64,000 bases of DNA from positions 667 to 64,666 of the forward strand of contig WARV01000009.1 of NCBI GenBank assembly GCA_013387205.1, written 5' to 3'. Origin of the DNA: Patescibacteria group bacterium (GTDB lineage Bacteria; Patescibacteriota; Doudnabacteria; UBA920). The translations under genes and the position numbers were made by a program. The notes beneath the pieces are model-generated. The model was not told the DNA's origin, made no database searches, and saw only the letters and a program-made list of their open reading frames with translations. Of this stretch, positions 27,994 through 63,500 are shown one piece after another (within the stretch, counting starts at the first letter, position 1; each line of letters begins with the position of its first letter).

Positions 27994-28030
27994 AACGGCT
28001 AAAACGTAGATTTATTACGTTTTAGCCGTT
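27994..28030. terminator. conserved-stem hairpin family copy 1 (AACGGCTAAAACGTA-GATTTAT-TACGTTTTAGCCGTT)
   Basis: Lies downstream of the minus-strand wHTH gene. The same stem sequence recurs 8 more times in the window. Confidence 0.6.
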
Positions 28031-28085
28031 AATTTTACCTATAACCACCTCCCAACAAACTTGAGAATGTTGGGATGTTATTGGG

Positions 28086-28436
28086 TTAGATTTTGGTGTA
28101 TTTGACAGAGCGGCCTTCGGCGCCGACCTGCTTGAGTTTGCCTTCGTTTTCCAGCTCCTGCAGGTAATTGGTCGCCGTGGCATCGCTGACATTCAGCAGC
28201 TTTTGCACATCGTCATTGGAGATTTCATCCTGGCTCCCAGCCATCTCCATAATTTTATTTTTGCCCGCCACTTTCTCCTGCTGTCTTTTTTCATTAACGG
28301 CATCAAGCCTTGCGTTATTCTCTACCTTTCCGGCGTCATTCTGAGACGCAGGCGAAGAATCTCTCTTTCTTCTCATCACTAACACAATCACAATCACTGC
28401 CAACACTATTGTCACAAAGTATATCATTAAATCCAT
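28086..28436 (-). CDS. membrane-anchored winged-HTH protein
   Basis: An N-terminal TM (MDLMIYFVTIVLAVIVIVLV) and a C-terminal wHTH (DVQKLLNVSDATATNYLQELENEGKLKQVG). Start set at the Met at 28436. Confidence 0.5.
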   Translation of the reverse strand: MDLMIYFVTIVLAVIVIVLVMRRKRDSSPASQNDAGKVENNARLDAVNEKRQQEKVAGKNKIMEMAGSQDEISNDDVQKLLNVSDATATNYLQELENEGKLKQVGAEGRSVKYTKI

Positions 28437-28452
28437 ATTTTTGTTTTTTATG

Positions 28453-28869
28453 TTAATTGTTATTTTTATGGTATTCAAGAAAGAATCTTCCTAACTCTGA
28501 ATTGAGCTTCCTTATCCATTCGACAGTTGAGGTTTCTTTATAAAAATTTTCAAAACGTTTATCATTATATTCATGCTTCCTTGGGTAATGAAAAGTTGCA
28601 TTACGATAATGTCTTAATAAATCAGTATTTTTGGATTTTAGCAACATATCAATAGCATCGTCCTTTAATTTGAGGTCCTTCCACCCTTCCACAACCACAT
28701 AAAGCAAACCATACCATACTGACATATATATCATCCATTCAATCTCAATCCCATGTTCATCAATCTCATTATTCATGTGCTTTCCCAAAATGTCATCAAA
28801 ATGAACTCGCATCCTGTTAGCCCAAATAAAATATCGATGAAGAATATTAATAGGATCGTCAGGCCTCAC
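28453..28869 (-). CDS. hypothetical protein with HEPN-like Rx4H motif (LRHYRNATFHY)
   Basis: 138 aa, helical, with the motif near the C-terminal third. It sits immediately upstream of the wHTH gene. Confidence 0.4.
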   Translation of the reverse strand: MRPDDPINILHRYFIWANRMRVHFDDILGKHMNNEIDEHGIEIEWMIYMSVWYGLLYVVVEGWKDLKLKDDAIDMLLKSKNTDLLRHYRNATFHYPRKHEYNDKRFENFYKETSTVEWIRKLNSELGRFFLEYHKNNN

Positions 28870-28963
28870 ATGTTTTTTACTTCTACTGACTTTCTTGTTG
28901 AATAGGTCATTTTTTAATGAATAAATAATGAGAAAAAGGTGTCAGGTATTTTTTTGCCCAAGT

Positions 28964-30190
28964 TTAGTTAGCCTGGCTATTTATTTTATCTCTTGTCACT
29001 TTATCTAAAATACCAGTTTGTTTTAATTTTTGAGATTTCTGATATTTCTTTAAAGCATCCCGTGTTGTTGCGCCAAAAATACCATATATTGTCGGTTTTT
29101 TGATTTTTAGTAATTGTTTAACCTCCAAAAAGTTTTGTAAAATTTCAACATCAGTGCCTTTGCTCCCCATCTTTAAATCTTGAGTAAAGTTGTATGAACC
29201 GGTTTTTATACCCAATACCTGGCTGGCTTGAATATTATTATTTGATATCTCCGGAACACACAAAGTTTTACTCTCATTTAATACAAAACCACCACTGCAA
29301 CTACAATTTTCATATGCTGAACCTATAGCCTGAAAATCATTGTTCTTTACTAAAGCGTTAGATCCCAACTCACGTATACAATAAGCAGCACGTGAAATAC
29401 AACTATTAGTTTTAGTATCAAAAATAGTTAATGAGTCACAAGCAAGATATATTGAAATACAACTACTCCTGTCTTTATTCCAAGTAAAATTTGTATCGCA
29501 AATGCATTGATTAGCTCCATAAGATTTGGCACCTAAACCATATTGGCTCTTACAAGTCTGATCTAAAGTAACACAAGTATTGTTTGTTTTATCAAAATAA
29601 TATCCATCATTACAGACACATTGATTTAAACTATCCACCTTAGCATTATATCCATATAAATTTTTACAATACTGGTCCATTGAAATGCAATATGTCTTAT
29701 CGGAATTAAAAACGTAACCATCACCACATTTACATTGTGTTAGTCCATAAGATTTAGCATTTCCAAATTGCCTTTGGCATGATTCATCAGTGGAAAAAAT
29801 GGAAGAATTATTTGATTGATAATCATAACCAGAACCAGAATTACTAGAATAACCCGGTAATGAATAGTTATATGAATTGTTATAACTGGGCGAACTATAG
29901 TTATAATTAAAATTTGTTCCTAAACTGCCACTGCTATTGTTATAGTAATTTTTCAGATAAGTATCGGAGTTGCCATCCGCAGTTTTTCCCGTATAAGGGT
30001 TAGTATTCCCGGGATAACTCCAATTATTATATGGATTACCATCGGGAGCTGAACGATAGTGGGGTTGTACATATGTTCCATTTTTTCTATAGTAACCATT
30101 TACATGAACACTTCCTCGAGCTTCAGTAAAATTGAAAAAACCAACACTAAAAATCGCGGCTAATAAAAATGCAGCTATGATTTTTTTCAT
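28964..30190 (-). CDS. secreted Cys-rich repeat protein with C-terminal peptidoglycan-binding domain
   Basis: Signal peptide, an N/S/Y-rich region and five CxCxDGYxFxxxxxxC..DQxCKxxYG repeats. The C-terminus GSKGTDVEILQNFL ... ALKKYQKSQKLKQTGILD is PG_binding_1-like. Confidence 0.65.
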   Translation of the reverse strand: MKKIIAAFLLAAIFSVGFFNFTEARGSVHVNGYYRKNGTYVQPHYRSAPDGNPYNNWSYPGNTNPYTGKTADGNSDTYLKNYYNNSSGSLGTNFNYNYSSPSYNNSYNYSLPGYSSNSGSGYDYQSNNSSIFSTDESCQRQFGNAKSYGLTQCKCGDGYVFNSDKTYCISMDQYCKNLYGYNAKVDSLNQCVCNDGYYFDKTNNTCVTLDQTCKSQYGLGAKSYGANQCICDTNFTWNKDRSSCISIYLACDSLTIFDTKTNSCISRAAYCIRELGSNALVKNNDFQAIGSAYENCSCSGGFVLNESKTLCVPEISNNNIQASQVLGIKTGSYNFTQDLKMGSKGTDVEILQNFLEVKQLLKIKKPTIYGIFGATTRDALKKYQKSQKLKQTGILDKVTRDKINSQAN

Positions 30191-30205
30191 ATGTTTCTGT
30201 TTTAA

Positions 30206-30646
30206 TTATTTTGCTTTGCAAGAATTTCCCACTTTCCTATAACCATAATTGCAATACCAAGTTGAGCCGGAAACATAGGCATTTTTTGGAGCAATGACTT
30301 TCTTACAGACTTTGCCTACTTTTTTATATCCTGAGTCGCAACTAAAACCTATTCCGGAAGCAGAGGTATTGGCATTTTCAGGAACTTTCTTTAAGGCACA
30401 GTTATAGCAGTCTTTATAATAACCGCTGGGCGGGTAGATTACGCCGCCGCTTTTTGGGTAAGTCGGATACAAACAAGGATGTCCGGCATCACCACAAGTA
30501 TACGAACCGCTATCGGAAGGGCAAGAATGCCAGCGGTGACAGCCAGACCTATGAGCAGAGGCATAATCAAAAATAATAAAGCTACCTAATAAGGTTAGTG
30601 TAATTACTACGATTCGTATTCGCCTTTTTAAACTTAAAATATCCAT
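30206..30646 (-). CDS. secreted Cys-rich small protein (paralogous repeat type)
   Basis: Signal peptide and repeated C..GY(K/R)KVG..CK units. Confidence 0.5.
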   Translation of the reverse strand: MDILSLKRRIRIVVITLTLLGSFIIFDYASAHRSGCHRWHSCPSDSGSYTCGDAGHPCLYPTYPKSGGVIYPPSGYYKDCYNCALKKVPENANTSASGIGFSCDSGYKKVGKVCKKVIAPKNAYVSGSTWYCNYGYRKVGNSCKAK

Positions 30647-30802
30647 ATCATCTTAAGCATATACCTAAGCCAAAAAATTGTAAATATGGCTTGTTTAAGA
30701 TGGATGGACTGAGGAGGGCGCCTTGAGCGATTTGCCCACTGCGGAGTGCAGAGAGCGCGTTTTAGACCAGTTATCTTTATGCCTTAAAATCATGTATTAA
30801 AA

Positions 30803-30839
30803 AACGGCTAAAACCTAAGAAATTTACGTCTTAGCCGTT
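30803..30839. terminator. conserved-stem hairpin family copy 2
   Basis: AACGGCTAAAACCTAAGAAATTTACGTCTTAGCCGTT, downstream of the giant surface-protein gene. Confidence 0.6.
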
Positions 30840-30976
30840 AGTGGTGTTAAATGCAATCTCATACAAAGTGTATTTGAAAAAAGGATAATAAAAAAAGCCC
30901 CAAAGTTTCCCTTGAGGCCCGAGGCTTGTATTGAGCTAAGTGTGAGAATGGTAACCGCAGGTCTTACTACCGCCTG

Positions 30977-33900
30977 CTAGTTTACCGTGAAAGCACTGGA
31001 ATAAGCTGTTCCGTAGGCAGTTTGTAGCTTGATCTGCCAGCTACCGGTGCTAAGCAATATATTGATGATTCGGATGGTGTTCAGAGACTGGATGGTGAGT
31101 CCAGCAACACCGTTCGTTCCACCGTCATTCGGATAGCAGGTGTTGGTGCCACTGACGCAGAACCACACCTTTGTGCTTGGTGTAAAACCCGTGCCGTAGA
31201 TGTACCCTGAGAACTGGACACCACCCACTGGCTGATTGTCCCAGTAGTAGCCCCCTGTTCCAGAATTGATCGTTGGCGCCACGCCGTTGACCGTAACACT
31301 GCAACTATTGGAAGTAGTGGTATTGCTGCTGTCCTTAACGGTAACGTTGTAGGTGAATGTTCCAGCGTCGTTTGGCAATACAGTAGCGCTGTTGCTTGAC
31401 TGGTAAGATCCTCCGTTGAGGCTGTACAGATAACCGCCAGTGCCGCCTGTTGCGTTCCCAATAAGGGACGAGCCGTTTCCTAAGTTAACAGGATTCGGCG
31501 ACAGGTAGCAGCTTACGGAAAGCGGAGCAGGAGGCGGCGCTGTCACGGTCAAGGTCGGATAGAGGTATTGGTCAACCCCTCCGCCCTGAGCGTGTAGCGT
31601 TAATGTGTAAGTCCCTGTTGGGGTAGATCCAGTAGTCTGCAAAGTCAGGGTAAAACTTGCCCCGCTTGTTGGACCGATGGAAAATACCAAAGACGAAGGA
31701 CTGGCAATTGTGGTATTTGCAGGTAAACCGGAAACAAATACTGTCACCTGATAGGTAAAGTTGTTGACGGGTGTAAGGTTTAAGTCAAACCCGACAGAAT
31801 CTCCAGCCTGTGCAGACTTGTTTCCGTTGAGCATGGTAAAAGTGTAAGTCGGAGTTGGAGTACTAGCCAGATTCACCGCAAAACTCACTGTTCCGCCAGC
31901 AGACAGGGTCTGGGTGGCAGCAGGAGTGATGGAATTGATGGTGTAGCCAGAAGGAGCCGTGCAGGACAAGGTGTAACTGCCTGCAGCCTGGCTGTTCAAG
32001 GTCGCCGGTGCCGAAATGTTCGTACCGTTAAGCGTACAACTAACCGTTCCTGCATAACCGCTGACTGTGACATTGACGGTGCCGGCGGAGGAAGACTGAC
32101 CCCCACTATATAGATTCGCAATCTCAGCCACGCTCAAAACCCGGCTGAAAATTGCAAGGTCGTCTAGCAAACCATCGAAACTGCGGTAAGCGCTGTTAAC
32201 ATACCAGCTACCGAGCAAGACGTTGGAAAGATCCAAAGATGGAGTGGTGGTAAAGGTGTTGGTTTTGTCCAAAACCCCATCAATGTAATACTTTATGGTC
32301 TTGTTGTTGACATCTATTGTGGTGGCAACATGGTGCCAGTTCTGGTCACTGATGGCAGAAGACACATAGTTTACGTCCCAACCTGGGTCAGGAATTCCAT
32401 ACACATACGAGCTTAGCCTGTCATTGTAGTAACCGACACGCGTGGTCATCATGAAAGCAAACTGGCCATTTGAACCAAAGCCGTTAGAACCAAACATGGC
32501 CCTATCCGTGTGGACAGTGGTAAAAGAAGTGGGCTTTATCCAGGCCGTGATTGTCACGGCATTGTTCCCAGTTCCATTGACGTCTCCAACGGTAATACGG
32601 CTATTGGAAGCATTGGAAAGCAATGCTCCTTGGCCGAACTTACCATAGCTGGTGCCATAGGTTACACTGGTGTCATTGCCGTTATGTCCGCCTTTGATAT
32701 CATTACTGTTTCCTTCAAAGCGGTAGTAAGCAAGCAGGTTCGGGTCATTGTAGAGCGAGGTGGAGAAGAGCTCGGTGGGACCGGAAGGCGCAGCCGTGAC
32801 GGTAAATGCATTGGAAAGATTGGACCATGTACCTGTACCGTTGCGTACCTTCACTTTCCAATCACCAGCAGAAAGGTTAATGCTAGAAATTACCGCTTGA
32901 CTGCCATCGATATTGGCAGCGACGGTAATTCCCGCGGGTTGCTGGTAGCAAGTGGTGTATCCGGGATCCTGGCAAAACCACACTTGTAGATTGCCAGGAA
33001 CTTGGTCAAAGTTGAGTCCGCTGACAATTCCATCGAAAGGAGTTCCAGCGGTAGCGGAACTGCTTGTGACGCCGAAAAGGTTGACAGAAGGCTGGCCGAG
33101 TTGGATTTGGTTGACACAGGTTGTGTGGGTTTGGTTACCCAGAGAGTCTGTGACATACAAATCCACGCCTGACAAGTATCCACCGTTGGTATAAGTGGTG
33201 GTGACCGAATTTCCTGTTCCGACAGCGCCGTTCTCCCAACTTATGGAGTGAGAAGATGAGCCACCGGAGACGGTAGCCGTGTAGGTCACTGGCGTATTAA
33301 CTGAAAGGATGCTGCTGTTCGGAGAGCATACCGCAGTCAACGAAGGGTTAATGACGAGGTTTTGGCTATTAGACAAAGACCCGCCAGGCCCGTTCCTTAA
33401 CTGAAACTGGTATGTATCCGCTTGCAACGGAGCAGTAAAACTGCCGACATAAGAAGTGGTCGTGGCATCGATCTTAGTTCCAAGACACCCGTTTGAACAT
33501 CCAGGTCCATAAATTAGACCTTGTATGTTCGCAGGATCCACAGAGCTAGCAGTGGCATACACATTGAAATTGTTGCCAACTGTCATGCCGCCAGATACTC
33601 CAACTGCGTTAATAGTGGGGGTGGTACTGGTTGGTGTCCCGCTATACAAATTCGCAATCTCAGCGTCTGTTGGCATGCGGTTAAAGAACGCGACGTCATC
33701 CATGTAACCGTTCCAGTACCGGTAGTTGTTAGTGGCGAATACCCCCAAGCTAGTAGGGGCGCCCGTTGCTATGCTTTCGGTATTGGTGAAGGTTGCCGAA
33801 TTATCGAGTACGCCGTTGATGTAGATCTTGGTAACACCGGTGGTAGCGTTGTAGGCTACGTCCCACATGTACCAAGTATTGGTTGTCAAGGTGGTGTTGG

Positions 33901-35700: not shown

Positions 35701-36198
35701 ATGATAAAAAAAATATTATTTTTTACATTTTTTTTAGGGTTGTTAGGGGCAGGCTGCAATAAAACTGAACCAATCAACAATTCACGAGAAACTTATACTA
35801 ACACCAAATACGGTTATAAAGTGGAGTATCCTTCTGGATATGTAGTTGATACATTTAAGACAACTGATGCAGGAGAAGACCTTCCTACAACTCCAGCACA
35901 AGCAGATTCTAACCCCGTAACAATAAGTAAGAATGGAAGTAAAAATTGGATCTCTATAAATGTATACATGGGGGCTTTGCCATTAACAGATGAGAATGTA
36001 GGAAAAGGTTTTGCCACCAACCCTACGGTAACAAAGATACAAGTTGCTAATTTACCAGGTTATAAATTGACATTTCCAGATACGCCATACGAGTTATACT
36101 TTGTCCAAAAATTTAACGGGCCACGTATTGGAATTAAAATACCTGTTAATAATTCCTTATCTGAAGATATGCTCAAAAGCTTTAGTTTTACCAATTGA
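35701..36198 (+). CDS. lipoprotein, hypothetical
   Basis: Lipobox LLGAGC after a hydrophobic leader. Confidence 0.55.
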   Translation: MIKKILFFTFFLGLLGAGCNKTEPINNSRETYTNTKYGYKVEYPSGYVVDTFKTTDAGEDLPTTPAQADSNPVTISKNGSKNWISINVYMGALPLTDENVGKGFATNPTVTKIQVANLPGYKLTFPDTPYELYFVQKFNGPRIGIKIPVNNSLSEDMLKSFSFTN

Positions 36199-36361: not shown

Positions 36362-36397
36362 AACGGCTAAAACCCAGGAAATTTAGGTTTTAGCCGT
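36362..36397. terminator. conserved-stem hairpin family copy 3 (between convergent genes)
   Basis: AACGGCTAAAACCCAGGAAATTTAGGTTTTAGCCGTT. Confidence 0.6.
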
Positions 36398-36409
36398 TTA
36401 GGGAATTTA

Positions 36410-36955
36410 TTATTTTGAGGATTTGATTTCTTCGGCGATGGTGTTGGTCCAGGATTCGATTTCTTTCCAGTCGCGGAAGTCGCCTTCGGGCATATTTTGG
36501 CGGGCAGAGGGGATTTTTTGCACTATCCTGTAGACAAAGCCGACAAAGCCGGTCAATTTTTCCCCAAAAAGCGCGCCAAAGAAAACTTTGTGGCCGCGGG
36601 GTTTGACAAGGGCCTTTAGCCCATCTATCTCTTGAGGCATTACTGAGGTTTCAAGCAAATCGCGTCCCTTGGCGTCCGTCTTCTTGTCGCTTGTGGGTCC
36701 GCTGGAAAATAGCCACACAGGGCGAGTGGAAAGCAGGGCCTGGTTTTTGGAAACAAACTGTTTTGCCTGTTTCATCCAGCTGCCCATGAACACGGCGCTG
36801 CCAATAACAAACGCGTTATAGCTTTCTAAATTTTTTACTTCATCTACATTAATCACGTCCGCTTCCAGTCCATGCTCGTTGAGTTTTTTGCCAATATGTT
36901 CGGCAATCCCTTTGGTGGAACCATATTTGCTCGCATAGGCTACTAAAATTTTCAT
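36410..36955 (-). CDS. flavodoxin-like fold protein
   Basis: MKILVAYASKYGSTKGIAEHIG is the flavodoxin FMN-phosphate loop (T/S-x-T-G). 181 aa. Confidence 0.7.
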   Translation of the reverse strand: MKILVAYASKYGSTKGIAEHIGKKLNEHGLEADVINVDEVKNLESYNAFVIGSAVFMGSWMKQAKQFVSKNQALLSTRPVWLFSSGPTSDKKTDAKGRDLLETSVMPQEIDGLKALVKPRGHKVFFGALFGEKLTGFVGFVYRIVQKIPSARQNMPEGDFRDWKEIESWTNTIAEEIKSSK

Positions 36956-42819: not shown

Positions 42820-42846
42820 AAACGGCTAAATCGGGGATTTAGCCGT
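42820..42846. terminator. conserved-stem hairpin family copy 4
   Basis: AACGGCTAAATCGGGGATTTAGCCGTT, downstream of the DUF2207 gene. Confidence 0.6.
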
Positions 42847-42866
42847 TGATTTGAACATATTTTAAT

Positions 42867-44618
42867 TTACCAGCCTCCTCCACCGCCGCCCCCGCCTCCA
42901 CCACCAGAGCCGCCGCCGGAAAAGCCGGAACCGGAGCCGGGTGGGGTTGAGGCCGCGGCTACTGCGCCGGTAAAGGATTTGCCGACTGTGGAAGCAAAAT
43001 CGTTCGCGCTAAAGTGGGTCAAGGAACCGTAATACCAGAGGGGTGCGTATTTGACTCCTCGGTTATCTAAGCGGGCAAAGACTTCGGCGAATTGCTGGGC
43101 CCACTGGTGCTCCACGTCCAAAGCTAAAGCATAGGGCAGTATCTTTTCAAATAGTTCGGGGGTCTTTTCCGGCGGATTGTGAAAGTTCAGCCGATCTTTT
43201 TCCGTGACAGTCAAAAACCACTTAAAGCCTTCTATCTCATCTGCCAATTTTCGGCCTTCTAAGGTATAAGCTCTCATTAACCAGGCAAAGATGATGTTTA
43301 CTGCCACCATTGCCAGAATGAAAATCGGCCAAAACATTATCGGCAGAAGAGAGTCAACGCTAAAGCGTACAAAAACGGCTGATATTATGGCTAAGGCAAC
43401 CACACCCAAAGACAGAAGAGCGCCTCCGACCACGACCAGAATATTCCTGGAAAAAAATTGCCTGCCTGCCTGCTCCTTTAAGGAGTCGGCGAATTTTTCA
43501 CGGATCTTTAAGGTCTCGGTCGCGTTTTCTTTTTCCAGTTTGTAAGAATCGGCGCCGGAGAAAAATTCATCCATCAATATCTGTTCTTCTTTCGGCAATT
43601 CAATTTGGGGTGCCTCGCTCTTTTTGGTTAAGGTGTAGGTCTTACTCCAAAACAAGCCTTTTACTTCTGTAACAGTCAGCTTGTTTCTAACTCCCAAATC
43701 GATGATGGCCGAAGCGAACGCACGGTTATCATTACCCATGCGGTTTATGAAGCGGAGCAGACCAGGCGAAAATCCGCACGGCGGCTCGTAATAGGGGATT
43801 ATGGTTCCCTTTTTGGGGTCGCGTCCGTGCTTATTCCACATATATAGATAGAAAGCCAAGACCAGCAAGAAGCCCAAAATACCGACAATGTAATCTGAGT
43901 TCGCCTTAAGTCCGGCCCAAAGGTTTTGGGCTTTAGTGGGAGGTGTAATATAGCCTTTTGGCCAGCCGACCGCTATGGTCAATCCTTCATTGGGACCAAG
44001 CGGGCGGGTGGTCTTGAATTCCGCGACGGAGTTGCCGGTTACGGTCGCCATGCCATCCTTTGCAGTTGAACCTTGTCTGCCAGTGTAAAGCGCGGTCGTA
44101 ATTTTCTCTTTGGGGATGTCGTTGGGAAGCTTGATTGTGGCTGTGGCCGAATCGATAGGGAAGACCCAGCCGTTTCCAGTGACGTTCCAATAAAGCTCGT
44201 CGTGGTCCTGGAAAAATCCCAACTGCCGGTCGGTTTTGTAAGTTAAAACATATTCCTGTTCGCCTAAGGGGACCAAGGTATCTTTTTTGCCTATGTATAT
44301 CCTCAGTCCGTTGCCTCCGCGCTCAATGTGATATTGTTCTGCCATTCCATCACGTTTGGCATCCAATAGCTCAAACCCCACTTGGTAGCGGTGACCTAAT
44401 TGGTCTTTGTAAGCGATGGGGAAATCGCGGTAAATGCCGTGGTTGATCTGCTGGTGCGCACTTATTACTTTGATGGTCTCCGTCACTATCATGGAGGAAT
44501 CTGCCTTCACTTCTATCTTACTGTCATATGAAAGGATGCGCTCTTGGGTTTGAGCGCTGGTCAGCAGGGGAAAGGTCAAAAGTATAGCACAAAGACTGAT
44601 CTTAAAGAATTTAATCAT
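42867..44618 (-). CDS. DUF2207-like membrane protein with Gly-rich C-terminal tail
   Basis: Signal/TM, a large extracellular N-domain, a mid TM cluster and the C-terminus [23 protein letters not shown] typical of this family. Start set at MIKFFK. Confidence 0.65.
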
Positions 44619-45065
44619 ATAAGTTGTTTTTGTCTCCGGCTTAATAAATGGAGTTACGAGACTATTAAGGTTGGGCCGCACATTAAAATGACGGCAAAAG
44701 GTGCATGAAAAGCGGGAATATCATCATCCAACCGCCAAATCCCTCAAGGACGTCAAAGGCGAATATGGAAATGAAAAAAACAAAGGCCAAAGACAATATC
44801 CTCGGCAACCGGATTACGGTTTGTTTTGTGCTTGGTATGGAATTACAGCAAAGTGCTTACGAATCTGCCGATGTAGTAAGGCCAGATTACGATGGCCAGC
44901 ACGCCCTGCCAGAACGAGAGATGTAGAAAGCCGATGGTGAAGATCCACGCGGCAAACCAGGAAAAGGCGGTAAAACTATGGTTTTCGATTTTAATTTTTT
45001 CCATAGTTTAATTATAACATATCTCAAAAACTCGCAGCCTGTTCGAATCCTGTTGTTGAATGCAT

Positions 45066-50294: not shown

Positions 50295-51368
50295 TCAACC
50301 TAATACCTGGGCTAATTTTCTGACTCCAACATTTTCTTGAAAGGTCAACGTTCCTTGAATAAAATCTTTTATATCTTTATGTAACTGATTGAGGCTGTTA
50401 AAGTCTAACTCATACCACTCTCCGCCGATATTATATTGTTTATACTTTTTATGTAAGTATCTTTCCAGAATCCAAGCTTTATCAGTCCTATAATAATTGT
50501 AGATTTCAATCTGATTCGGGTTTCCAGTTTGTATATTACTGACGCGCTGTTTCAAATTTTGAGTCACACCGATTTTGAAATTGCTGGTTCCAAGAGAACG
50601 AACTATATAAAGCCCTAATTCATCGTTAGCTACGTCGTACACAACATTCTCAGCAAGGTTGCCTTCTTTATAAACCCGTCCGTTAAGTCTAGCCACACGA
50701 CCAAAACCATCATTCATTAAACTGAACCCCAAATCTTCCAACATCCATTCTTGGGCGTGATAAACCGGATCTTTATCATATTCTTTCAGCACATGGCAAA
50801 CTTTTTTGGCAACAGCGTCCCGGTAGTCGTAACCTTCGTAATTTTCGTGAAACCTGGCCGCTTGTGAAGAATTGGTAGCCACAATAAACCAATTCTCATC
50901 ATTGTCCTTGGTCGTAACCCAATATAGATGTTTAGGCTTTGTATACAAAGCTGCTCGCGTAATTAAATGTTTATTTACTATGTAAGAATCTTCACCTTCA
51001 AAGCTATATAGCTGATTTTTATCATCCAAATCCAGCCATTCGTAAGTATTTTTAACAATGCCGCCACGATAAATAACTCTAACACCAATCATATCTAAGA
51101 ACCTGTCGCAACAGTGGATATCTTGATATTTTAATATGGTATATTTTTTCCTAGTGGAAAACTCCCGGTCTATAGAAAAACGGAATGATTCTCCAAGTAG
51201 CTTTTGAATGCACTCTTTAATGTATGATAAATCATCCGTCTGAGCCATTTCCCATCCACGGACGTCTTTATATGGCAGTTGATACTTAAATTCTGAACGG
51301 TTTAACCTGTGGGCTAAAATCTTGCCATTAGGGTGCGTTATTAGAAATCGTAGGCCTGTGATATACAT
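50295..51368 (-). CDS. T5orf172 (GIY-YIG superfamily, MUG113-like) C-terminal domain protein with unknown N-terminal domain
   Basis: The C-terminus GLYIVRSLGTSNFKIGVTQNLKQRVSNIQTGNPNQIEIY...ERYLHKKYKQYNIGGEWYEL matches the T5orf172 pattern (YKIGxTxNxxxRxxxLxTGxP ... gEWFel). It lies ~70 nt downstream of the intron-containing tRNA. Confidence 0.65.
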   Translation of the reverse strand: MYITGLRFLITHPNGKILAHRLNRSEFKYQLPYKDVRGWEMAQTDDLSYIKECIQKLLGESFRFSIDREFSTRKKYTILKYQDIHCCDRFLDMIGVRVIYRGGIVKNTYEWLDLDDKNQLYSFEGEDSYIVNKHLITRAALYTKPKHLYWVTTKDNDENWFIVATNSSQAARFHENYEGYDYRDAVAKKVCHVLKEYDKDPVYHAQEWMLEDLGFSLMNDGFGRVARLNGRVYKEGNLAENVVYDVANDELGLYIVRSLGTSNFKIGVTQNLKQRVSNIQTGNPNQIEIYNYYRTDKAWILERYLHKKYKQYNIGGEWYELDFNSLNQLHKDIKDFIQGTLTFQENVGVRKLAQVLG

Positions 51369-51438
51369 ATATCTTTCAATTATTGACTAAATAAAAAAAC
51401 AAAAACCACCAAATTTTTGATTTTTAGTGGTTTTTGTT

Positions 51439-51812
51439 TGGCTCGGGAGGTGGGATTCGAACCCACGGCCAATCGATTACACTTATCCTGATGTTTCCAA
51501 AAGGGGTGGACTATATCATCATCCTATTCCAGGTGGCTCGGGAGGTGGGATTCGAACCCATCTCTTACCATCTAAAAATATAGGATGCGAGGCGCTTCGT
51601 TCCAAAGTTTTTAGAACTACTCCCATAAAGGGATAGTCTCTGAACCTTCCCGCCTGTTGAGCGGGCTTGGCTGCTGATTACCATTTTACAGGTTTCCAGC
51701 AATTCACCTCGTTTTTCCATTCCCAATTACTTGGGAAGGCTGCTAATGTTTGATCTCCTTTAGAGCGAGATCAGGTCTACAGTCGATTGCTCTACCGCTG
51801 AGCTACTCCCGA
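51439..51812 (-). tRNA. tRNA-Asn(GUU) interrupted by a 299-nt group I intron (exons 51812-51779 and 51479-51439)
   Basis: The joined exons give a canonical 75-nt cloverleaf: acceptor UCGGGAG/CUCCCGA, D stem GCUC/GAGC, anticodon stem AUCGA/UCGAU, loop CUGUUAA, T stem GUGGG/CCCAC, T loop UUCGAAU, G73 and an encoded CCA. Confidence 0.7.
51480..51778 (-). ncRNA. group I self-splicing intron (IC-like core) in anticodon loop between nt 35/36
   Basis: In the minus-strand reading: P1 candidate CUGU/GCAG, P2 CCCAAGUAAUUGGG, P element AAUUGCUGGAAAC, Q AAUCAGCAGCC, P6 CCCGCUCAACAGGCGGG, R GUUCAGAGACUA, S GAUAUAGUCC, and a terminal G before the 3' exon. The P8 region is enlarged and contains a tRNA 3'-half-like copy (51535-51562). 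Confidence 0.65.
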
Positions 51813-52078
51813 ATATGTTGTTTTATAAATTGCCTGCCTCGATGGCTTTTAAGCTGTTTTTCTCTTATCAAGGCTTGTTGGCGAGTATCAACATTTTCTG
51901 AATATATTAGTTGCCACTCACCATCAAAACTTGAAGTGTATCCCTTAAAAGTATGTTCGTTATGTAGCCTTAAACGCTCTGTTAAATTTTCGGTTTGACC
52001 GATATATATTTTCTTATGTTTTGGATTATAGATAGCGTAAACGCTAAACATTAGTGTCGATTGCTCTACCTCCGCCAT
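51803..52078 (-). CDS. small GIY-YIG nuclease family protein (YhbQ/UPF0213-like)
   Basis: VYAIYNPKHKKIYIGQTENLTERLRLHN is the GIY-YIG motif pair. The 3' end (IRE-stop) overlaps tRNA nt 1-10. The 5' end overlaps a duplicated tRNA 5' fragment. The start may be the second Met (52051). Confidence 0.7.
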   Translation of the reverse strand: MAEVEQSTLMFSVYAIYNPKHKKIYIGQTENLTERLRLHNEHTFKGYTSSFDGEWQLIYSENVDTRQQALIREKQLKSHRGRQFIKQHIRE

Positions 52079-52221: not shown

Positions 52222-52248
52222 AACGGCTAAACTAATGATTTAGCCGTT
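52222..52248. repeat. conserved-stem hairpin family copy 5 (in divergent promoter region)
   Basis: AACGGCTAAACTAATGATTTAGCCGTT. This is the only copy not in a terminator position. Confidence 0.55.
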
Positions 52249-52306: not shown

Positions 52307-53002
52307 ATGGATATAAAAAACAAGGTCGCAATTATTACCGGCGCGTCTTCTGGCATTGGCTTGGCTTTGGCTAAAGAATTGTCTGCACGTGGCGCTAAAG
52401 TTGTCATTTCGGCCAGGTCAGGAGATAAATTAAAGCAGCTGGAAAGTGAAATTCCAAATTCTTTTGCCTTGCCCGCTGATATGGGTAAACCAGAAGATAT
52501 AAAAAATCTCATCCGGCAAACTTTGGAAAAGTTTGGGCAGATAAATATTTTGGTCAACAATGCCGGCCAGGGTTTGCGCGCGCCTCTGGAAAAAATTGAT
52601 GCCCAAGACTTCCGCGACTTAATGGAGATAAATGTTTTTGGGCCGCTTATTGCCATGCAGGAAGCTATCCCGATTATGAAAAAGCAGGGCGGGGGATTAA
52701 TTATAAACATTAGTTCCCAAGTCACTAGAGGCCATATTCCAAATTTATCAGCCTACTCCTCGACAAAATACGCGCTTAATTCCATTTCGCTGACTGCCAG
52801 GCAGGAATTGGAAAAGGATAATATTGTTGTCAGTGTTTTTTATCCCAAAACGACTGCCACCAATTTTGGGCAAAACGTACGCGGGGAAAAATACGACTCC
52901 AGGACCGTCCGTCCGGGGATAATAGCGGATACGCCGGAAGCCGTGGCAGAAAAGATCGCCGACCAGATAGAAACCGAAACCGCCGAAGAGTTTATGCGAT
53001 AA
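52307..53002 (+). CDS. SDR family oxidoreductase
   Basis: TGASSGIGLALA (TGxxxGxG), NNAG, and YSSTKYAL (YxxxK). Confidence 0.9.
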   Translation: MDIKNKVAIITGASSGIGLALAKELSARGAKVVISARSGDKLKQLESEIPNSFALPADMGKPEDIKNLIRQTLEKFGQINILVNNAGQGLRAPLEKIDAQDFRDLMEINVFGPLIAMQEAIPIMKKQGGGLIINISSQVTRGHIPNLSAYSSTKYALNSISLTARQELEKDNIVVSVFYPKTTATNFGQNVRGEKYDSRTVRPGIIADTPEAVAEKIADQIETETAEEFMR

Positions 53003-55608: not shown

Positions 55609-55635
55609 AACGGCTAAAACATCGATATAGCCGTT
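55609..55635. terminator. conserved-stem hairpin family copy 6
   Basis: AACGGCTAAAACATCGATATAGCCGTT, 16 nt after the stop. Confidence 0.6.
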
Positions 55636-55813
55636 GAAACACAACAAAAATATAAAAATAACATCCTTACATTCTCAAGTATGTAAGGATGTTATTGTAT
55701 GAAAATATGTACCAAAACAAAACCCGACTAAGACTTTTAGTCTTAAGTTTACCCATAAGTAATCATAGTTTTATCCGTCAAAATTCATAAGCAAAAGAAT
55801 TAACAAAAATTTT

Positions 55814-56226: not shown

Positions 56227-56263
56227 AACGGCTAAATCCTAAGAAAACTACGATTTAGCCGTT
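56227..56263. terminator. conserved-stem hairpin family copy 7
   Basis: AACGGCTAAATCCTAAGAAAACTACGATTTAGCCGTT. Confidence 0.6.
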
Positions 56264-57045: not shown

Positions 57046-57108
57046 AACGGCTAAAACACCCTAGTTAACTGGACTGCAAGTTAACGGGGGTAAACTTTTT
57101 TAGCCGTT
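57046..57108. terminator. conserved-stem hairpin family copy 8 (long loop with inner GTTAACT palindrome)
   Basis: AACGGCTAAAACACC ... GTAAACTTTTTTAGCCGTT, between convergent genes. Confidence 0.55.
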
Positions 57109-57639
57109 TGTTTTATGCCTGTGCCCGTGTTTGGTTGCCGTTTGCGCTTTATAGAACGGTTTGTGCGGGGTTTCCCGCATCCTTTTATCCAGCAGTTCAG
57201 CCAGCCACTGGAAGTATTCGCCTAAGAACGGGTCAGGCGTTTTTTCGCGCATATCCAAAAACATAACTTTGTATTTCTCCCATGAAGTCACGACAAATGA
57301 GCCGAGAGTGATATCTACCAAGTCGATATTAATAAACCGCTTTGCCACAAGAATGCCGAGCGATTCCATCTGCTGCGCGAGTTGGATAAAGGCAACCTGT
57401 TCGCCGTGGGGGAGCGCCCGCAATTCTTCTTGGCTGGTTGGCATTTTGTGCGAGGTTATATAGTGGATGAGTTCGGCAAATCCGCGCGTCTGGAAGTTGT
57501 GCAGCGTCTCGAGCGTGAGGCGTTCCCTGCGGTCGCGCTCTGCCGCTTTAACCTGCGCAATGCCAAACACGAGCGCCACGATGAACGATAGCGCCAGCGC
57601 AAGGTTAGCGATATTGGATATTATTTCGCTGCTTGTCAT
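57100..57639 (-). CDS. hypothetical membrane-anchored protein co-transcribed with MFS transporter
   Basis: 4-nt overlap with the upstream MFS gene. An N-terminal TM. Confidence 0.45.
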   Translation of the reverse strand: MTSSEIISNIANLALALSFIVALVFGIAQVKAAERDRRERLTLETLHNFQTRGFAELIHYITSHKMPTSQEELRALPHGEQVAFIQLAQQMESLGILVAKRFINIDLVDITLGSFVVTSWEKYKVMFLDMREKTPDPFLGEYFQWLAELLDKRMRETPHKPFYKAQTATKHGHRHKTNG

Positions 57640-59530: not shown

Positions 59531-59602
59531 TTAGGACCTATTCGAAAAACATTTTATGCTGCAATTCCCGATTTACGGCTAAACATCAAAAATCATTTTG
59601 AG
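59531..59602. repeat. MITE-like element partial copy H (left half of copy-B type)
   Basis: TTAGGACCTATTCGAAAAACATTTTATGCTGCAATTCCCGATTTACGGCTAAACATCAAAA. Confidence 0.65.
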
Positions 59603-59819: not shown

Positions 59820-60311
59820 ATGCCTGAAAATTCCAAAGAAGTGCAGTTTGTTTTGCAAAAAATCCAGCCGGCGCTGCTTGGGCTTATGGACGGGGCGGTT
59901 TCGACCATGGCGCCGATTTTTGCTACGGCTGAACTTACAAAAAACAGCCATAACGCGTTCATTATCGGGACTGCTAGCGCGCTCGGTGCCGGAATCAGCA
60001 TGGGTTTTGCCGAAGCCTTATCTGACAACGGGGAGGTGACGGGGCGGGGGCGGCCGGAATCCCGCGGGCTTATTACAGGATTAGCCACGGCCGTTGGCGG
60101 CATGCTGCACACCTTCCCGTTTTTAATTCCTGACCTGCAAGCCGCTTTGCATTTGGCTTACGCGGTTGTGGCGATGGAACTTTTGGTCATCGCCTTCGCC
60201 CGCTATAAATTCATGAACAGCCCTTTGGCAAAAACCGTTTTCCAAGTGGTGGTAGGCGGCGGCATTGTCTTTGCGGTCGGTTTGTTTTTGGGTCGCCTTG
60301 GCGCACAATGA
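59820..60311 (+). CDS. VIT1/CCC1 family (putative iron/manganese transporter) membrane protein
   Basis: [18 protein letters not shown] at the N-terminus and glycine-rich TM helices, as in the VIT family. Confidence 0.55.
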
Positions 60312-60452
60312 CAATTTAAATTTTTTATTCCTGGATTCGTGATGGTCGTCACGAATCCAGGAATTGTTTTAATTGAGTAACCAATTACATAATCCGCACT
60401 TTCTCCTCTAAGCAGGCAAGCGACTGACCTTTTAAGAGGGCAGGTTTAAGCC

Positions 60453-60968
60453 ATGCGGATTTCCACCGTCATAATTATCGGACTTAAAGTAAAAAATATG
60501 GATGAAAAAGAGCAATTAATTGAAAATTGGCAGGCTGAATTTCCGGTAACTTTTAAAGTGCTGATGAATTTTCCGCCCGACAAGACAGATTTAAAGCCGC
60601 ACGAAAGGTCGCGCAGCGCCAAGGATTTGGGACGGACTTTTGTCTTTGATATGCATTTGATGCGCCAGGCCATTGCCGGAAAAATCGATTTCGGCCAATT
60701 GAAATTCATGCCCATGCCGGAATCCTGGCAGGAAATTCTGGCCAGTTTGGAAATGGCTTATAAAGGGTTTATGGAAGAACTTGAGCAGTCTCCGGAAAGC
60801 GAACTTAATAAGCCTGTCACTTTCGGCAACGGATCGGTGAGGAGGATGGATGTCGTTTGGGAAATTTTAAAAGACATGATACACCATCGCGGCCAGTTCT
60901 CTGTATATTTGCGTATGGCAGGCGGCAAAGTCCCTTCTATTTATGGGCCTTCAGCGGATGAACCGTAG
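60453..60968 (+). CDS. DinB/YfiT-like (DinB_2) family protein
   Basis: The ILKDMIHHRGQFSVYLR motif. The start is probably the internal Met (MDEKEQL). Confidence 0.65.
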   Translation: MRISTVIIIGLKVKNMDEKEQLIENWQAEFPVTFKVLMNFPPDKTDLKPHERSRSAKDLGRTFVFDMHLMRQAIAGKIDFGQLKFMPMPESWQEILASLEMAYKGFMEELEQSPESELNKPVTFGNGSVRRMDVVWEILKDMIHHRGQFSVYLRMAGGKVPSIYGPSADEP

Positions 60969-60978
60969 GGGAATGACC

Positions 60979-61052
60979 TGCCTTCGTTCCGACCTTGTTG
61001 GAACTTCGGCGTGGCGAGGCCCACCTTCGTTTACACTTCGGCGTGGCGAGGC
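60979..61052. repeat. tandem direct repeat (2 units ending ACTTCGGCGTGGCGAGGC)
   Basis: (T)GCCTTCGTT..ACTTCGGCGTGGCGAGGC / CCACCTTCGTTTACACTTCGGCGTGGCGAGGC. Confidence 0.6.
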
Positions 61053-61160
61053 AAGAATTTTGTAATAAACCAGACCTAATTTTAGGGTTGGTTTTTTTGT
61101 TACCAAAATAAAAACATATCGTAATATAATATGAAGCAAGCTTTGGACGCCCTTTTTTGA

Positions 61161-61198
61161 GTATTCCATTTTTTCACGGCCGTGAAAAAATGGAATAC
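61161..61198. promoter_or_regulatory. perfect 19-bp inverted repeat GTATTCCATTTTTTCACGG|CCGTGAAAAAATGGAATAC
   Basis: Lies 85 nt upstream of an ECF sigma gene. It may be an operator or a terminator. Confidence 0.5.
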
Positions 61199-61282
61199 CA
61201 TAAAATATTATATGCAAATTTGCAAGCCGCGTTTTTATAGGCGATAATATAATCACTAAAAACAAAGTTAATATAACCACCA

Positions 61283-61855
61283 ATGGATTTTCCAGAATCA
61301 CAAATAATCGCCGATTGCCAAAAAGGGGAGTATTCCCAGTTTGGACAGCTCTATGACGCGTACATAAAAAAGATTTACAGCTTCATTTATTTCAGGACCC
61401 ATCATAAGGAAACGGCAGAAGACTTGACCAGTGTCGTCTTTATGAAGGCTTTGGAAAAAATCTCGAGCTTTAACGGCAACAAGGGGCAATTCTCTTCCTG
61501 GCTGTACCAGATTGCCAGAAATTCTATCATTGACCATTACCGCACTTTTAAAGCGGAAGAAGATTTGGAAAACGCCTGGGACGTTCCTTCAAACAGCAAC
61601 GTGGAAAGGGACGCGGATATTTCAAGGCAAATGGAAAACGTCAAAAAACAGCTGGCCGAACTTCCGGCCCAGCAGCGGGACGTGGTGGTTATGCGCGTGT
61701 GGGACGGTTTGAGCCATAAGGAGATTGCCGAAATTTTGAGGATAAGCGAATCCAGCAGCAAGATGTCTTTTTCCAGGGCTCTGGCCAAAATCAACAAAGA
61801 GACGGTTACAACTTTGGCCGCTTTGGCTGTAATTTTGGGAAATCAAAATTTTTAA
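61283..61855 (+). CDS. ECF RNA polymerase sigma factor
   Basis: Region 2 (FIYFRTHHKETAEDLTSVVFMKA, WLYQIARNSIIDHYR) and region 4 (LSHKEIAEILRISESSSKMSFSRA). Confidence 0.85.
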   Translation: MDFPESQIIADCQKGEYSQFGQLYDAYIKKIYSFIYFRTHHKETAEDLTSVVFMKALEKISSFNGNKGQFSSWLYQIARNSIIDHYRTFKAEEDLENAWDVPSNSNVERDADISRQMENVKKQLAELPAQQRDVVVMRVWDGLSHKEIAEILRISESSSKMSFSRALAKINKETVTTLAALAVILGNQNF

Positions 61856-61868
61856 ACCATCAATATTT

Positions 61869-63356
61869 ATGGATAATAATATAGAAAAAATTTTACAGGA
61901 GCTTTATGTAATGGACGCGGGATTTAAATCCCACGAAGCCAAGCTGAAAACCTTGCTTAGCGAACTTTTGCAGAACAAGCCTGATGTTAAGCTTGATGAG
62001 GAATTCGTATTAAACTTGCGCAGGAAACTTTTGGCCAAAGCCGATTTGATGCAGTCGCAAAACGCGTCGCGGTTTCCGCTCAAAGCTATTGCGTTTTCTT
62101 TAAGCGGTTTAATGGTTGTAGTTTTGGCTGTTTTGGTTGGAGTGTATTCCAGGCAAATAAAAACCAAACAGCTTCCTGCCACGCAACCTTATATTTTTGG
62201 CGGTAAAAGCGACAAACTTTTAAATGCCAGTGTTAATATTAACAAAGTCAGCCAGCAGGCTTTTGGTAAATTATCTATGGCAGATTTTTCTCCGGTCGGA
62301 CGCGGCGGAGGCGGAGCAGGGGCAGGAGCGGCGGAATCTTTTAGCAGTGCCGCGGCAGCGCCAACAATGTCGCCAGATGCGAAAGTTGCCATTATGCCGC
62401 CGATAACCACTTACTCATACGTATATAAAGGCGGCGAGATTGATTTGAAGGATACAGAGCTGCCGGTCTTTAAGAGGGTTAAAGGCCTGGGTGATAATTT
62501 TGATGCCAAATCCTTGCTCAAGCAGCTGGACTTCGGCTCAATCGACATGGATAAATTTGAAAATACTAAAATACAATCGCTGAATATTCTGCAAGACATG
62601 GAGTACGGCTATAACTTTTACATCAATTTGGAAGACGGGATTATTAACATGAGCGAGAATTGGGCAAAGTGGCCGAATCCGGAAAAGAGCTGCCAGGATA
62701 CACAGTGCTACCAAAACACGCGGCTTAAAATTAGCGATGTGCCCAGCGACGAAGAGCTGATAAATATCGCTAATAGGTTTTTGCAGGACCACAACATTTC
62801 CCTGGCTTCTTACGGCCAGCCCGCGGTGGCTGATACCTGGAGGCAGGAATATGAGAATATGTCAGATAAGTCGCAGGCTTATATCCCGGCAATTTATAAT
62901 ATAATTTATCCTTTGCAGGTTGAGGGCGAGGATGTTTATGATCCGAGCGGCTATAAGGCCGGGCTGGCTGTCGGCGTGGATATTAGGTTTAAAAAGGTTT
63001 CAGGTATGGCGGATTTGGCAAGCTTAAAATTCGAGAGTTCGGATTATCCTGTTATCACCCAAAGCCAAGAAATTATAAAGTATGCCGAGCGCGGCGGGGC
63101 GGCTAATCCCAATTTTTACATGCAAGGCTCCAGGGAAGTTAAATTGGAACTCGGCGATCCTTTTAAGGTTTACGTAAAAATTATGAAAAATGACGGCGCT
63201 TCAAGCCAGGAATTGTTAGTACCTGCTTTAATTTTCCCAATCAAGAATAGGCCGGCTGGCGCGGCCTATGCCCATAAGGGGATAGTGGTTCCGCTGGTAA
63301 AGGGAATTCTGAATGACCAGGCAACTGGCGGCGGCCCGGTGAGGATCTACAAATAA
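61869..63356 (+). CDS. putative anti-sigma factor with large extracytoplasmic domain
   Basis: Begins 14 nt after the sigma gene. An N-terminal helical region, a TM (~aa 75-95) and a ~400-aa ectodomain with a Gly-rich linker. Confidence 0.55.
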   Translation: MDNNIEKILQELYVMDAGFKSHEAKLKTLLSELLQNKPDVKLDEEFVLNLRRKLLAKADLMQSQNASRFPLKAIAFSLSGLMVVVLAVLVGVYSRQIKTKQLPATQPYIFGGKSDKLLNASVNINKVSQQAFGKLSMADFSPVGRGGGGAGAGAAESFSSAAAAPTMSPDAKVAIMPPITTYSYVYKGGEIDLKDTELPVFKRVKGLGDNFDAKSLLKQLDFGSIDMDKFENTKIQSLNILQDMEYGYNFYINLEDGIINMSENWAKWPNPEKSCQDTQCYQNTRLKISDVPSDEELINIANRFLQDHNISLASYGQPAVADTWRQEYENMSDKSQAYIPAIYNIIYPLQVEGEDVYDPSGYKAGLAVGVDIRFKKVSGMADLASLKFESSDYPVITQSQEIIKYAERGGAANPNFYMQGSREVKLELGDPFKVYVKIMKNDGASSQELLVPALIFPIKNRPAGAAYAHKGIVVPLVKGILNDQATGGGPVRIYK

Positions 63357-63455
63357 CTACAGATCTACGAATTCATCCGAATCTACAGATACCTACAGAT
63401 GTGCTTAGAAGATTATCTGTAGGCAATCCGTAGATCCGTAGATAATCTGTAGTTC
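63340..63455. repeat. array of 8-bp motif CTACAGAT (x3) and its complement ATCTGTAG (x3) plus CCGTAGAT variants
   Basis: ATCTACAAATAACTACAGATCTACGAATTCATCCGAATCTACAGATACCTACAGATGTGC..TATCTGTAGGCAATCCGTAGATCCGTAGATAATCTGTAGTTCTGTAG. Confidence 0.6.
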
Positions 63456-63464
63456 TGTAGAATA

Positions 63465-63500
63465 AACGGCTAAATCCTAGGAAATTTACGTTTTAGCCGT
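63465..63500. terminator. conserved-stem hairpin family copy 9
   Basis: AACGGCTAAATCCTAGGAAATTTACGTTTTAGCCGTT followed by an A8 run. A second imperfect hairpin lies at 63508-63561. Confidence 0.6.

Follow-up and report, generated by a model that had tools for sequence, protein, structure and literature searches.

A dispersed hairpin element of Patescibacteria and its association with a transmembrane winged-helix gene

Results

Nine intergenic hairpins share the arms of one stem

The DNA analysed here is a stretch of 64,000 nt, referred to below as the window, from a Patescibacteria group bacterium of the Doudnabacteria (GenBank assembly GCA_013387205.1, contig WARV01000009.1, positions 667 to 64,666 of the forward strand). 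It contains nine intergenic hairpins, H1 to H9, whose stems have the arms AACGGCTAAA and TTTAGCCGTT, and one of these (H1) lies downstream of a gene for a small protein with a transmembrane (TM) helix and a winged helix. An earlier note on this DNA had pointed out nine look-alike hairpins, and the counts given below confirm them in the window. The new part is the pairing of the hairpin with the TM-winged-helix gene across Patescibacteria, and in the literature we found no description of either the motif or the pairing.

In the 64-kb window, which is part of a 73,159-bp contig, the exact 10-mer AACGGCTAAA is present 17 times when both strands are counted. Dinucleotide shuffles lead one to expect 0.41 ± 0.60, and a count of 17 is reached in 0 of 100 shuffles. 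The paired arms of eight hairpins account for sixteen of these occurrences, and one further arm pairs with an arm carrying one mismatch. When strand and orientation are checked, 17 of 18 exact arms are found to be paired, the exception (14557) lying inside an open reading frame (ORF), and single arms with one mismatch occur at chance-level frequency in the window, with no excess. The stem had been described as identical in all nine copies, which holds apart from two right arms with one mismatch each (30830, CTTAGCCGTT, in H2, and 55626, TATAGCCGTT, in H6); its described extension, (A/T)C ... G(T/A), is present in eight of the nine copies, the copy at 52222 having CT...GA instead.

Three sizes of hairpin are present: a 27-nt form (n = 3) with a 10-12-bp stem and a 3-7-nt loop, a 37-nt form (n = 5), the inner part of which approximates C-TA-RGAAANN-TA-C/G, and a single 63-nt form with an inner hairpin. 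Loops had been put at 10-38 nt; with stems taken as 10-12 bp they measure 3-43 nt across the nine copies. All nine fold as predicted, with RNA minimum free energies of -8.8 to -26.6 kcal/mol and z values of -3.1 to -7.5, and Rfam has no family at the hairpins of the window.

The hairpins are all intergenic, and eight of them lie 0-163 nt past a stop codon, in agreement with the earlier note. Copies between convergent genes, described there as several, number two (36362 and 57046), and the copy assigned to a divergent region (52222) does lie in one, between GIY-YIG and SDR genes. Eight of the nine start positions stand as they were given and the fourth moves from 42820 to 42821. Copies are spaced 0.6-9 kb apart, at a density of about one per 4 kb over 28-64 kb, and the part from 1 to 24.8 kb has no copy of this main family. 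The gene and the hairpins are as follows.

28086..28436, strand -: TM-winged-helix gene, 116 residues; N-terminal TM helix, long helix and C-terminal winged helix; recognition helix SDATATNYLQELE
27994..28030, strand -: H1, 37-nt form; 15-bp stem, -20.4 kcal/mol, z -7.5; 55 nt downstream of the stop of the TM-winged-helix gene
30803..30839, unstranded: H2, 37 nt; right arm CTTAGCCGTT; 137 nt past the stop of the gene for a 1546-residue surface protein
36362..36398, unstranded: H3, 37 nt; between the convergent genes 35701-36198 (+) and 36410-36955 (-, flavodoxin)
42821..42847, unstranded: H4, 27 nt; 12-bp stem and 3-nt loop; 19 nt past the stop of a DUF2207 gene (42867-44681, -)
52222..52248, unstranded: H5, 27 nt; divergent region between a GIY-YIG gene (51803-52078, -) and an SDR gene (52307-53002, +)
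55609..55635, unstranded: H6, 27 nt; right arm TATAGCCGTT; flanks TTTC/GAAA; 15 nt past the stop of a 372-residue gene
56227..56263, strand +: H7, 37 nt; 17 nt past the stop of a glyoxalase-family gene and upstream of a PEMT-family gene
57046..57108, unstranded: H8, 63 nt, with an inner hairpin; between convergent genes
63465..63501, strand +: H9, 37 nt; 108 nt past the stop of a 495-residue gene (61869-63356, +)
24898..24934, unstranded: possible degenerate tenth copy, intergenic; GCGGCTAAAT ... ATTAGCCGT with an inner GC hairpin; z only -2.2, membership uncertain

Judged from its loop, H1 is in the sense orientation relative to the TM-winged-helix gene. The right arm of H8 provides the final codons, Asn-Gly-stop, of a DUF4760 gene (57100-57639, -), whose protein ends ...HKTNG*. 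H6 is followed by a hairpin of a second family at 55657-55696. Directly upstream of H9 there is a cluster of short repeats (CTACAGAT / CCGTAGAT / CTGTAG) at 63383-63464, and past H9, at about 63510-63560, another long hairpin.

The hairpin lies at the 3' end of the TM-winged-helix gene

The hydrophobic N-terminal helix of the window protein is followed by the residues RRKRD, and its AlphaFold model consists of the TM helix, a long helix and a winged helix. Because Arg/Lys residues come right after the TM helix, the positive-inside rule predicts that the winged-helix domain faces the cytoplasm. At E <= 1e-10 the protein family comprises 1769 representatives of 50%-identity clusters. It is absent from the curated families of NCBIfam, its named relatives are from Patescibacteria only, and it was not found in viral contigs. 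The recognition helix SDATATNYLQELE is nearly invariant, the rest of the family being about 40% identical. Eleven separate stretches of a longer, 818-residue protein (P0284) match the winged-helix profile, making it a tandem multi-helix-turn-helix (HTH) protein; its NCBIfam matches are generic HTH ones only.

Seven of the loci that were selected by the hairpin carry a homologue of the gene too. At six of these hairpin-selected loci, which are metagenomic or from metagenome-assembled genomes (MAGs), the gene homologue runs into the hairpin, so that AAC GGC TAA (Asn-Gly-stop) is the left arm. A second set of loci was fetched via the protein alone and is hence unbiased for the hairpin. In this set, counting the window, a hairpin is present at the 3' end of the gene in seven of seven loci, 0-55 nt from the stop; the six fetched loci are these.

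L237: hairpin 5 nt past the stop
L240: hairpin overlaps the gene end (...ING*)
L241: degenerate hairpin (...IG*); the contig ends there
L242: the stop TAA gives the AA of AACGGC
L243: hairpin 4 nt past the stop; TTTC/GA flanks
L244: hairpin directly past the stop; AAGGCT variant

In most of the six, 4-18 kb of sequence contain this copy alone or one more besides. It is very unlikely that gene and hairpin meet by chance, because the gene is about one in 10-20 per locus and the coincidence would have to occur six times over. The association holds at 40-65% protein identity, and we conclude that the hairpin is locked to the TM-winged-helix gene.

Since the arm encodes Asn-Gly-stop, a C-terminal 'NG' can serve as a proxy for overlap between gene and hairpin, and 18 of 42 close homologues end in this way. 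Of 244 copies, 34 (about 14%) close an ORF that is 60 codons or longer; the control frames give 17, so that the excess is roughly twofold. A general role for the stop codon within the arm was rejected on the same figure, only about 14% of copies ending an ORF.

Pairing and core sequence of the stem are selected

We analysed covariation in 17 copies that were unconstrained by the search pattern, namely secondary copies within loci and copies reached via the protein. Variants that change both arms include ATCGGC...GCCGAT, ...CAC...GTG and ...CAG...CTG, and AACGGCTCAA...TTGAGCCGTT is found in three lineages. Compensatory changes at stem pairs 1, 2, 8 and 10 amount to 15 cells (n = 17), which none of 500 shuffles reaches, and the signal collapses in slid controls. 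Positions 3-7 of the stem (CGGCT) are invariant across the 17 copies. As the two arms change together, pairing of the stem is under selection, and the sequence of the CGGCT core is selected too. A tentative definition of the element, as part of the overall explanation favoured below, would be a palindrome specific to Patescibacteria with the core CGGCT/AGCCG and the usual form AACGGCTAA ... TTAGCCGTT, in which inner stem and loop are free.

The recognition helices of the protein family fall into two main types, one with Asn (...TATNYL) and one with Arg (...TATRYL or ...TAERYL). 'NG' ends are present in 28 of 86 Asn-type proteins and in none of 61 Arg-type proteins (Fisher 4e-8, with counts that are phylogenetically non-independent). 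L289, the only locus of the Arg/Glu type that was read, does not have the AACGGCT hairpin but has TTGCGGCTCAGTC|GACTGAGCCGCAA about 155 nt downstream of the gene; the CGGCT core of this stem is kept and its base is changed from AA to TG, alongside a change from TN to ER in the helix. A pattern of this kind in helix and stem base would be expected had the protein and its site co-evolved, the direct example being one locus.

The element is patchily distributed and multi-copy in scattered lineages

A scan of one genome per species (596 Gb) with the pattern AACGGCTAAA-N(3-33)-TTTAGCCGTT returned at least 114 stretches. Among the matches listed, Patescibacteria account for about 30 of 114 stretches, and the multi-copy genomes are two Taylorbacteria MAGs (4 and 5 loci), a Saccharibacteria MAG (4) and a Paceibacteria MAG (5), with an inner stem, CAC, CGC or CTTC, that differs from one multi-copy genome to another. 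The listed matches outside Patescibacteria are single, mostly terminator-like hairpins in unrelated phyla; such single matches are the chance yield expected of a 596-Gb search. Those listed from Bacteroidota/Saprospiraceae are single terminators with A/T tracts, at about the expected share of that phylum, and a Bacteroidota/Saprospiraceae source of the window, to which the first pattern matches had pointed, was rejected on this ground.

A metagenome scan with 12-nt arms returned at least 120 stretches; among the matches listed, the 27-nt form is frequent in groundwater metagenomes and the flanking genes are diverse (158 clusters among 215 flanking proteins). Viral contigs gave 44 single matches and zero multi-copy contigs. 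The hairpin was not found in L235 (21.7 kb) or L236 (13.6 kb), both of them contigs of related organisms. On the strength of the genome scan, the metagenome scan and the absences in L235 and L236, the element is associated with the Candidate Phyla Radiation (CPR) and patchy, being multi-copy in scattered lineages.

The neighbourhood of the window copies was also compared. Around the TM-winged-helix gene, the Joint Genome Institute (JGI) contig L237 is syntenic with the window; for the DUF2207 protein beside H4, the best named relatives are about 60% identical and belong to Ca. Doudnabacteria and 'Patescibacteria group bacterium', and homologues of the PEMT-family gene reach at most 73% identity and come from many phyla. 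By protein similarity, including the named relatives of the TM-winged-helix protein, the window is most likely part of a CPR genome.

Two groups of metagenomic copies have flanks of their own. In the Ga0310122 contigs L131, L136, L146, L150, L155, L164, L172, L187 and L190 (GC about 0.5) there is TTTT to the left of the element and AAAA to its right, which lengthens the palindrome and gives no terminator-like tail. In the groundwater contigs L123, L133, L176, L177 and L203 the hairpin stands between the repeat modules GGGCTCATAACCCGCTC..AAATATAAATATCTT and GCGGAAGCTTCAGAAATAACATTTATTCTGTTTT; as the insertions between the modules vary, these intergenic regions are built of several repeat modules.

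Comparison with mobile palindromes, terminators and uptake sequences

The earlier note had offered a REP-like mobile hairpin, uptake sequences and terminators as interpretations; the first of these stands in part, and the uptake sequence and the canonical terminator do not. Repetitive extragenic palindromes (REPs) have a conserved GTAG or CGTC tetranucleotide at one end (PMC3733652). The hairpins resemble REPs as short extragenic palindromes, with nine in 36 kb here and several per genome in other CPR genomes, and in being patchy. No GTAG/CGTC tag was found at the hairpin ends (AACGGCT/AGCCGTT, with unconserved flanks), GTAG being present inside the H1 loop only, and there are no doublets of the REPIN kind among the copies. 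A tblastn search with IS200 TnpA and the Escherichia coli REP-associated tyrosine transposase (RAYT), using hand-typed query sequences, gave no match to a Y1 transposase in the window and 236 loci, 1.5 Mb of hairpin-bearing DNA; likewise, the Pfam and NCBIfam families for RAYT-type transposases have no member among the 60 window ORFs scanned. Target-site duplications are not visible at the window copies. There are also no empty sites among 276 hairpin flanks, a null result to be expected of loci that had been chosen by their hairpin.

The systems of Enterobacteria, Pseudomonas and Stenotrophomonas, in which REPs usually lie on either side of the RAYT gene, are similar in several respects: 20-40-nt extragenic palindromes in many copies, a conserved stem base with a freer apex, a patchy distribution and one copy beside a dedicated gene. 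They differ in that the element described here has neither tag nor doublets, its neighbour is a small non-enzymatic TM-winged-helix protein and not a Y1 HUH transposase, and its core is conserved across classes of a phylum, where that of REPs is conserved per species. A REP-like dispersed hairpin is nevertheless the closest of the earlier ideas, and the element is best filed as a variant of the dispersed extragenic palindromes.

It could be supposed that the hairpin is a selfish or domesticated REP-like mobile element copied by an enzyme encoded elsewhere, be it a RAYT-type Y1 transposase or another, and that the copy at the winged-helix gene is an old insertion, tolerated because the arm brings its own stop codon. 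The short, extragenic and multi-copy character of the element and its absence from L235 and L236 fit this explanation, and the lineage-specific inner stems look like separate bursts. The TAA of the arm also ends other genes, such as DUF4760 in the window and the ORFs that exceed the control frames twofold. Nested or partly duplicated arms, which suggest slippage or an element inserted into itself, are found in L237 (4127-4161), L163 (2039-2074) and L175 (903-938), as AACGGCTCAACGGCTAAAAC... and AACGGCTAAAACGGCTAAATAGCCGTTTTAGCCGTT. Besides the missing tag, doublets, transposase match, duplications and empty sites, however, a purely selfish element fails to account for the association with one gene in seven of seven loci at 40-65% identity, and selfishness gives no account of a core that is invariant across CPR classes or of 'NG' ends limited to one helix type. 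We regard this explanation as unlikely, if still one to be reckoned with.

A role at transcript 3' ends is less probable still. The hairpin would then be a terminator or an RNA stabiliser without a dedicated binding protein, kept uniform by gene conversion and by the constraint of coding overlap. Most of the hairpins had been placed in terminator positions, which is right for their location past stop codons, and the hairpins are stable; in five of six window copies the loop of the long form is rich in A when read in the sense of the upstream gene, and the H2 mismatch becomes a G-U pair once transcribed in that sense. One groundwater group, in which A- and T-tracts are common, resembles a bidirectional intrinsic terminator, and 26 of 119 copies overall have both tracts. 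As terminators, however, the window copies do poorly: only H1, H3 and H5 (3/9) pass a rule of stem plus T-tract, and none of the eight exact copies has both an A-tract and a T-tract. In named CPR genomes both tracts are present in 1 of 34 copies and neither in 30 of 34. Canonical terminators stand separately beside some copies, at 30895-30920 (-) between H2 and the stop of the surface-protein gene and at L237 7720-7752. Canonical intrinsic terminators thus share with the element the stable stem past the stop codon and, in one groundwater lineage, the A- and T-tracts, but most copies here have no T-tract and their stem is AT-rich and of fixed sequence. Gene conversion within a genome cannot keep CGGCT constant across CPR classes, and the coding overlap extends over only 9 nt of one arm, in some loci only.

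The proposal that the arms are DNA uptake sequences arranged as inverted pairs, which would bias transformation towards the organism's own DNA as in Neisseria and Pasteurellaceae, we consider very improbable. Its appeal is that the Neisseria DNA uptake sequence (DUS) and the Pasteurellaceae uptake signal sequence (USS) are also conserved 9-12-mers found as inverted pairs downstream of genes, with lineage dialects to which the inner stems could be likened; the conserved unit here is a 9-10-mer. Patescibacteria are reported to be naturally transformable, at least as regards Saccharibacteria (PMC10633639). Unlike DUS and USS, the hairpin has almost no single copies and none enriched in genes: 17 of 18 exact arms in the window are paired, and single arms are at chance level there and behave in the same way in other lineages. 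The two arms moreover co-vary, the element was not found in contigs of related organisms, and the winged helix of the associated protein should, by the positive-inside rule, be cytoplasmic.

Solitary guide-RNA units, either stem-loop units of the tandem interspaced guide RNA (TIGR) type or orphan CRISPR repeats, deserve almost no credence. Stem-loop TIGR arrays with palindromic stems are known from CPR bacteria (bioRxiv 10.64898/2026.09.09.750476) and the right arm of the hairpin starts GTTTTAG. The copies, however, are dispersed 0.6-9 kb apart and form no tandem arrays, and most of the loops (3-17 nt) could not accommodate two spacers plus box C/D and a 9-nt loop. Nop-domain, Tas and Cas proteins were not found among the 60 window ORFs scanned, and two unassigned ORFs adjoining copies have no PDB match by sequence search. 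The resemblance to a CRISPR repeat had already been set aside as superficial, and rightly so. Two kinds of recombination site were tried and rejected as well. Integron attC sites have RYYYAAC ... GTTRRRY boxes (R''/R'), a length of 57-141 bp, extrahelical bases, co-oriented cassettes and an integrase, against 27-63 nt and perfect stems here; the flanks misfit GTTRRRY, the neighbouring genes are on both strands, and there is no integrase among the scanned ORFs. A Xer/dif-type site misfits in its box sequences and fixed spacing.

Other elements in the window

In a second hairpin family the loop and the apex are conserved, AACATCC..ACATTCTCAAGT.TGT..GGATGTT. Both of its window copies (28046-28082 and 55657-55696) lie within about 20 nt of a main hairpin (H1 and H6, respectively). 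The family is also present in L037, L070, L144/L183/L194 and L203, with conservation across CPR lineages, and in L183 the winged-helix gene with its hairpin is likewise followed by a member. A third family (8671-8709, 19889-19927 and 20422-20457) is designed like the main hairpin, its stem base, ACAAGGGG...CCCCTTGT, being conserved and its inner part free, and is located in the part of the window that has no main hairpin; it was not found in any fetched locus. Three near-perfect palindromes of 38 nt (12797-12834, 61161-61198 and 60327-60364), with ends of the ATTC/GAAT type and a central ACGGCCGT (or GATGGTCGTC), may be another family.

At 51390-51812 (-) there is a tRNA gene whose anticodon loop is split by a full-length group I intron at 51487-51762 (Rfam RF00028, 87.6 bits). 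ARAGORN called no tRNA in the window, and the tRNA was found once the intron had been removed by hand (anticodon region GTA); the 3' end of the intron contains a partial copy of the tRNA 3' half. The GIY-YIG ORF (91 residues, 51803-52078) is just upstream of the split tRNA and a T5orf172/MUG113-domain gene (50295-51368) is downstream. A full-length LOOT RNA at 3722-3838 (-) (Rfam RF03000, 87.3 bits) shares its region with a ParB-domain DNA methyltransferase and an HTH_Tnp-like ORF. The part from 1 to 8500, which is lower in GC (0.39-0.40), carries genes of defence or mobile type, namely a weak Dsr1-like match, the ParB-domain methyltransferase, a Rhs-associated core and the HTH_Tnp ORF, and no main-family hairpin; it may be an acquired island.

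Discussion

Our preferred explanation, which we put forward tentatively from the sequence comparisons, is that the nine hairpins are a REP-like amplified element and would be the cognate site of the TM-winged-helix protein. The founding copy would have been at the 3' end of the TM-winged-helix gene, where in many lineages the left arm forms the last two codons and the stop (AAC GGC TAA), and the element has been amplified, in the manner of REPs, into other intergenic sites of this genome. The cytoplasmic winged helix would read the stem base in a sequence-specific manner, the near-invariant recognition helix SDATATNYL matching an invariant stem base. Binding at the copy of its own gene could give feedback on expression, the stop codon being inside the stem in many lineages, and the dispersed copies could be further sites at which nucleic acid is held at the membrane. 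As a side effect, a stable stem-loop at the 3' end of a transcript would protect the RNA or act as a weak terminator.

The variable distance between the arms (3-43 nt), together with selection for pairing, points to a folded form as the ligand, that is, a cruciform, a single-stranded DNA hairpin or an RNA stem-loop, and not to a dimer on a duplex palindrome. There are weak hints of RNA in the A-rich loops that are sense in five of six long-form window copies and in the H2 mismatch that becomes G-U in the sense strand. A hint of DNA is that winged helices typically read specific bases in B-form duplex.

Several observations weigh against a cognate site of this kind. A fold search with the window protein returned generic winged helices alone (ArsR/MarR regulators, ribosomal protein eS25 and Z-alpha), with weak scores. 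The loop variation misfits a dimer on duplex DNA, and the base pairs of an A-form RNA stem would be an unusual target for a winged helix. L289 is the single locus behind the co-variation of helix and stem base, and the helix types may simply be two clades, in which case the 'NG' counts are not independent. In one locus, L170, the hairpin is upstream of the gene and not downstream. The association could also be old, or the gene could be a favoured insertion site that has been kept for its own 3' end. Finally, a cognate site does not in itself explain how the copies multiply.

ParB-parS, with parS in spo0J, and Noc-NBS, which brings DNA to the membrane, are organisers with a site in or beside their own gene. 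They have in common with the TM-winged-helix protein and its hairpin a DNA-binding protein (here putative), many dispersed palindromic sites with one at the protein's own gene, and association with the membrane; they are unlike it in that no ParB fold is present here and the variable arm spacing implies a folded hairpin in place of a fixed 16-bp duplex palindrome. Very small dispersed elements, the SDR elements of cyanobacteria, were reportedly described by Elhai and co-workers in 2008. They are also hairpin-forming elements of about 21-27 nt, dispersed between genes and with no known transposase, but neither a tie to one gene nor conservation throughout a phylum is known for SDR elements.

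Patescibacteria make up a large share of bacterial diversity, and to our knowledge almost nothing is known of how their genomes are organised and regulated. The hairpin is a short, sequence-defined cis element common to several classes of Patescibacteria and tied to one family of small proteins, about 1,800 sequence clusters, to which no function is assigned. It provides two markers of CPR contigs, the hairpin itself and the C-terminal Asn-Gly that is added to proteins, and it carries a warning for annotation, as a repeat can supply gene ends in CPR genomes. It is conceivable, although we lean against it, that the hairpin and the TM-winged-helix protein form an unrecognised two-part system, widespread in Patescibacteria, in which the membrane-anchored protein would read a folded palindrome by a helix-to-base code (Asn with A-T, Arg with G-C), tether many sites on chromosome or transcripts to the membrane of these ultra-small cells and regulate its own gene by way of the copy that contains the stop codon. 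The pairing of hairpin and protein offers a concrete and testable protein and site in these organisms.

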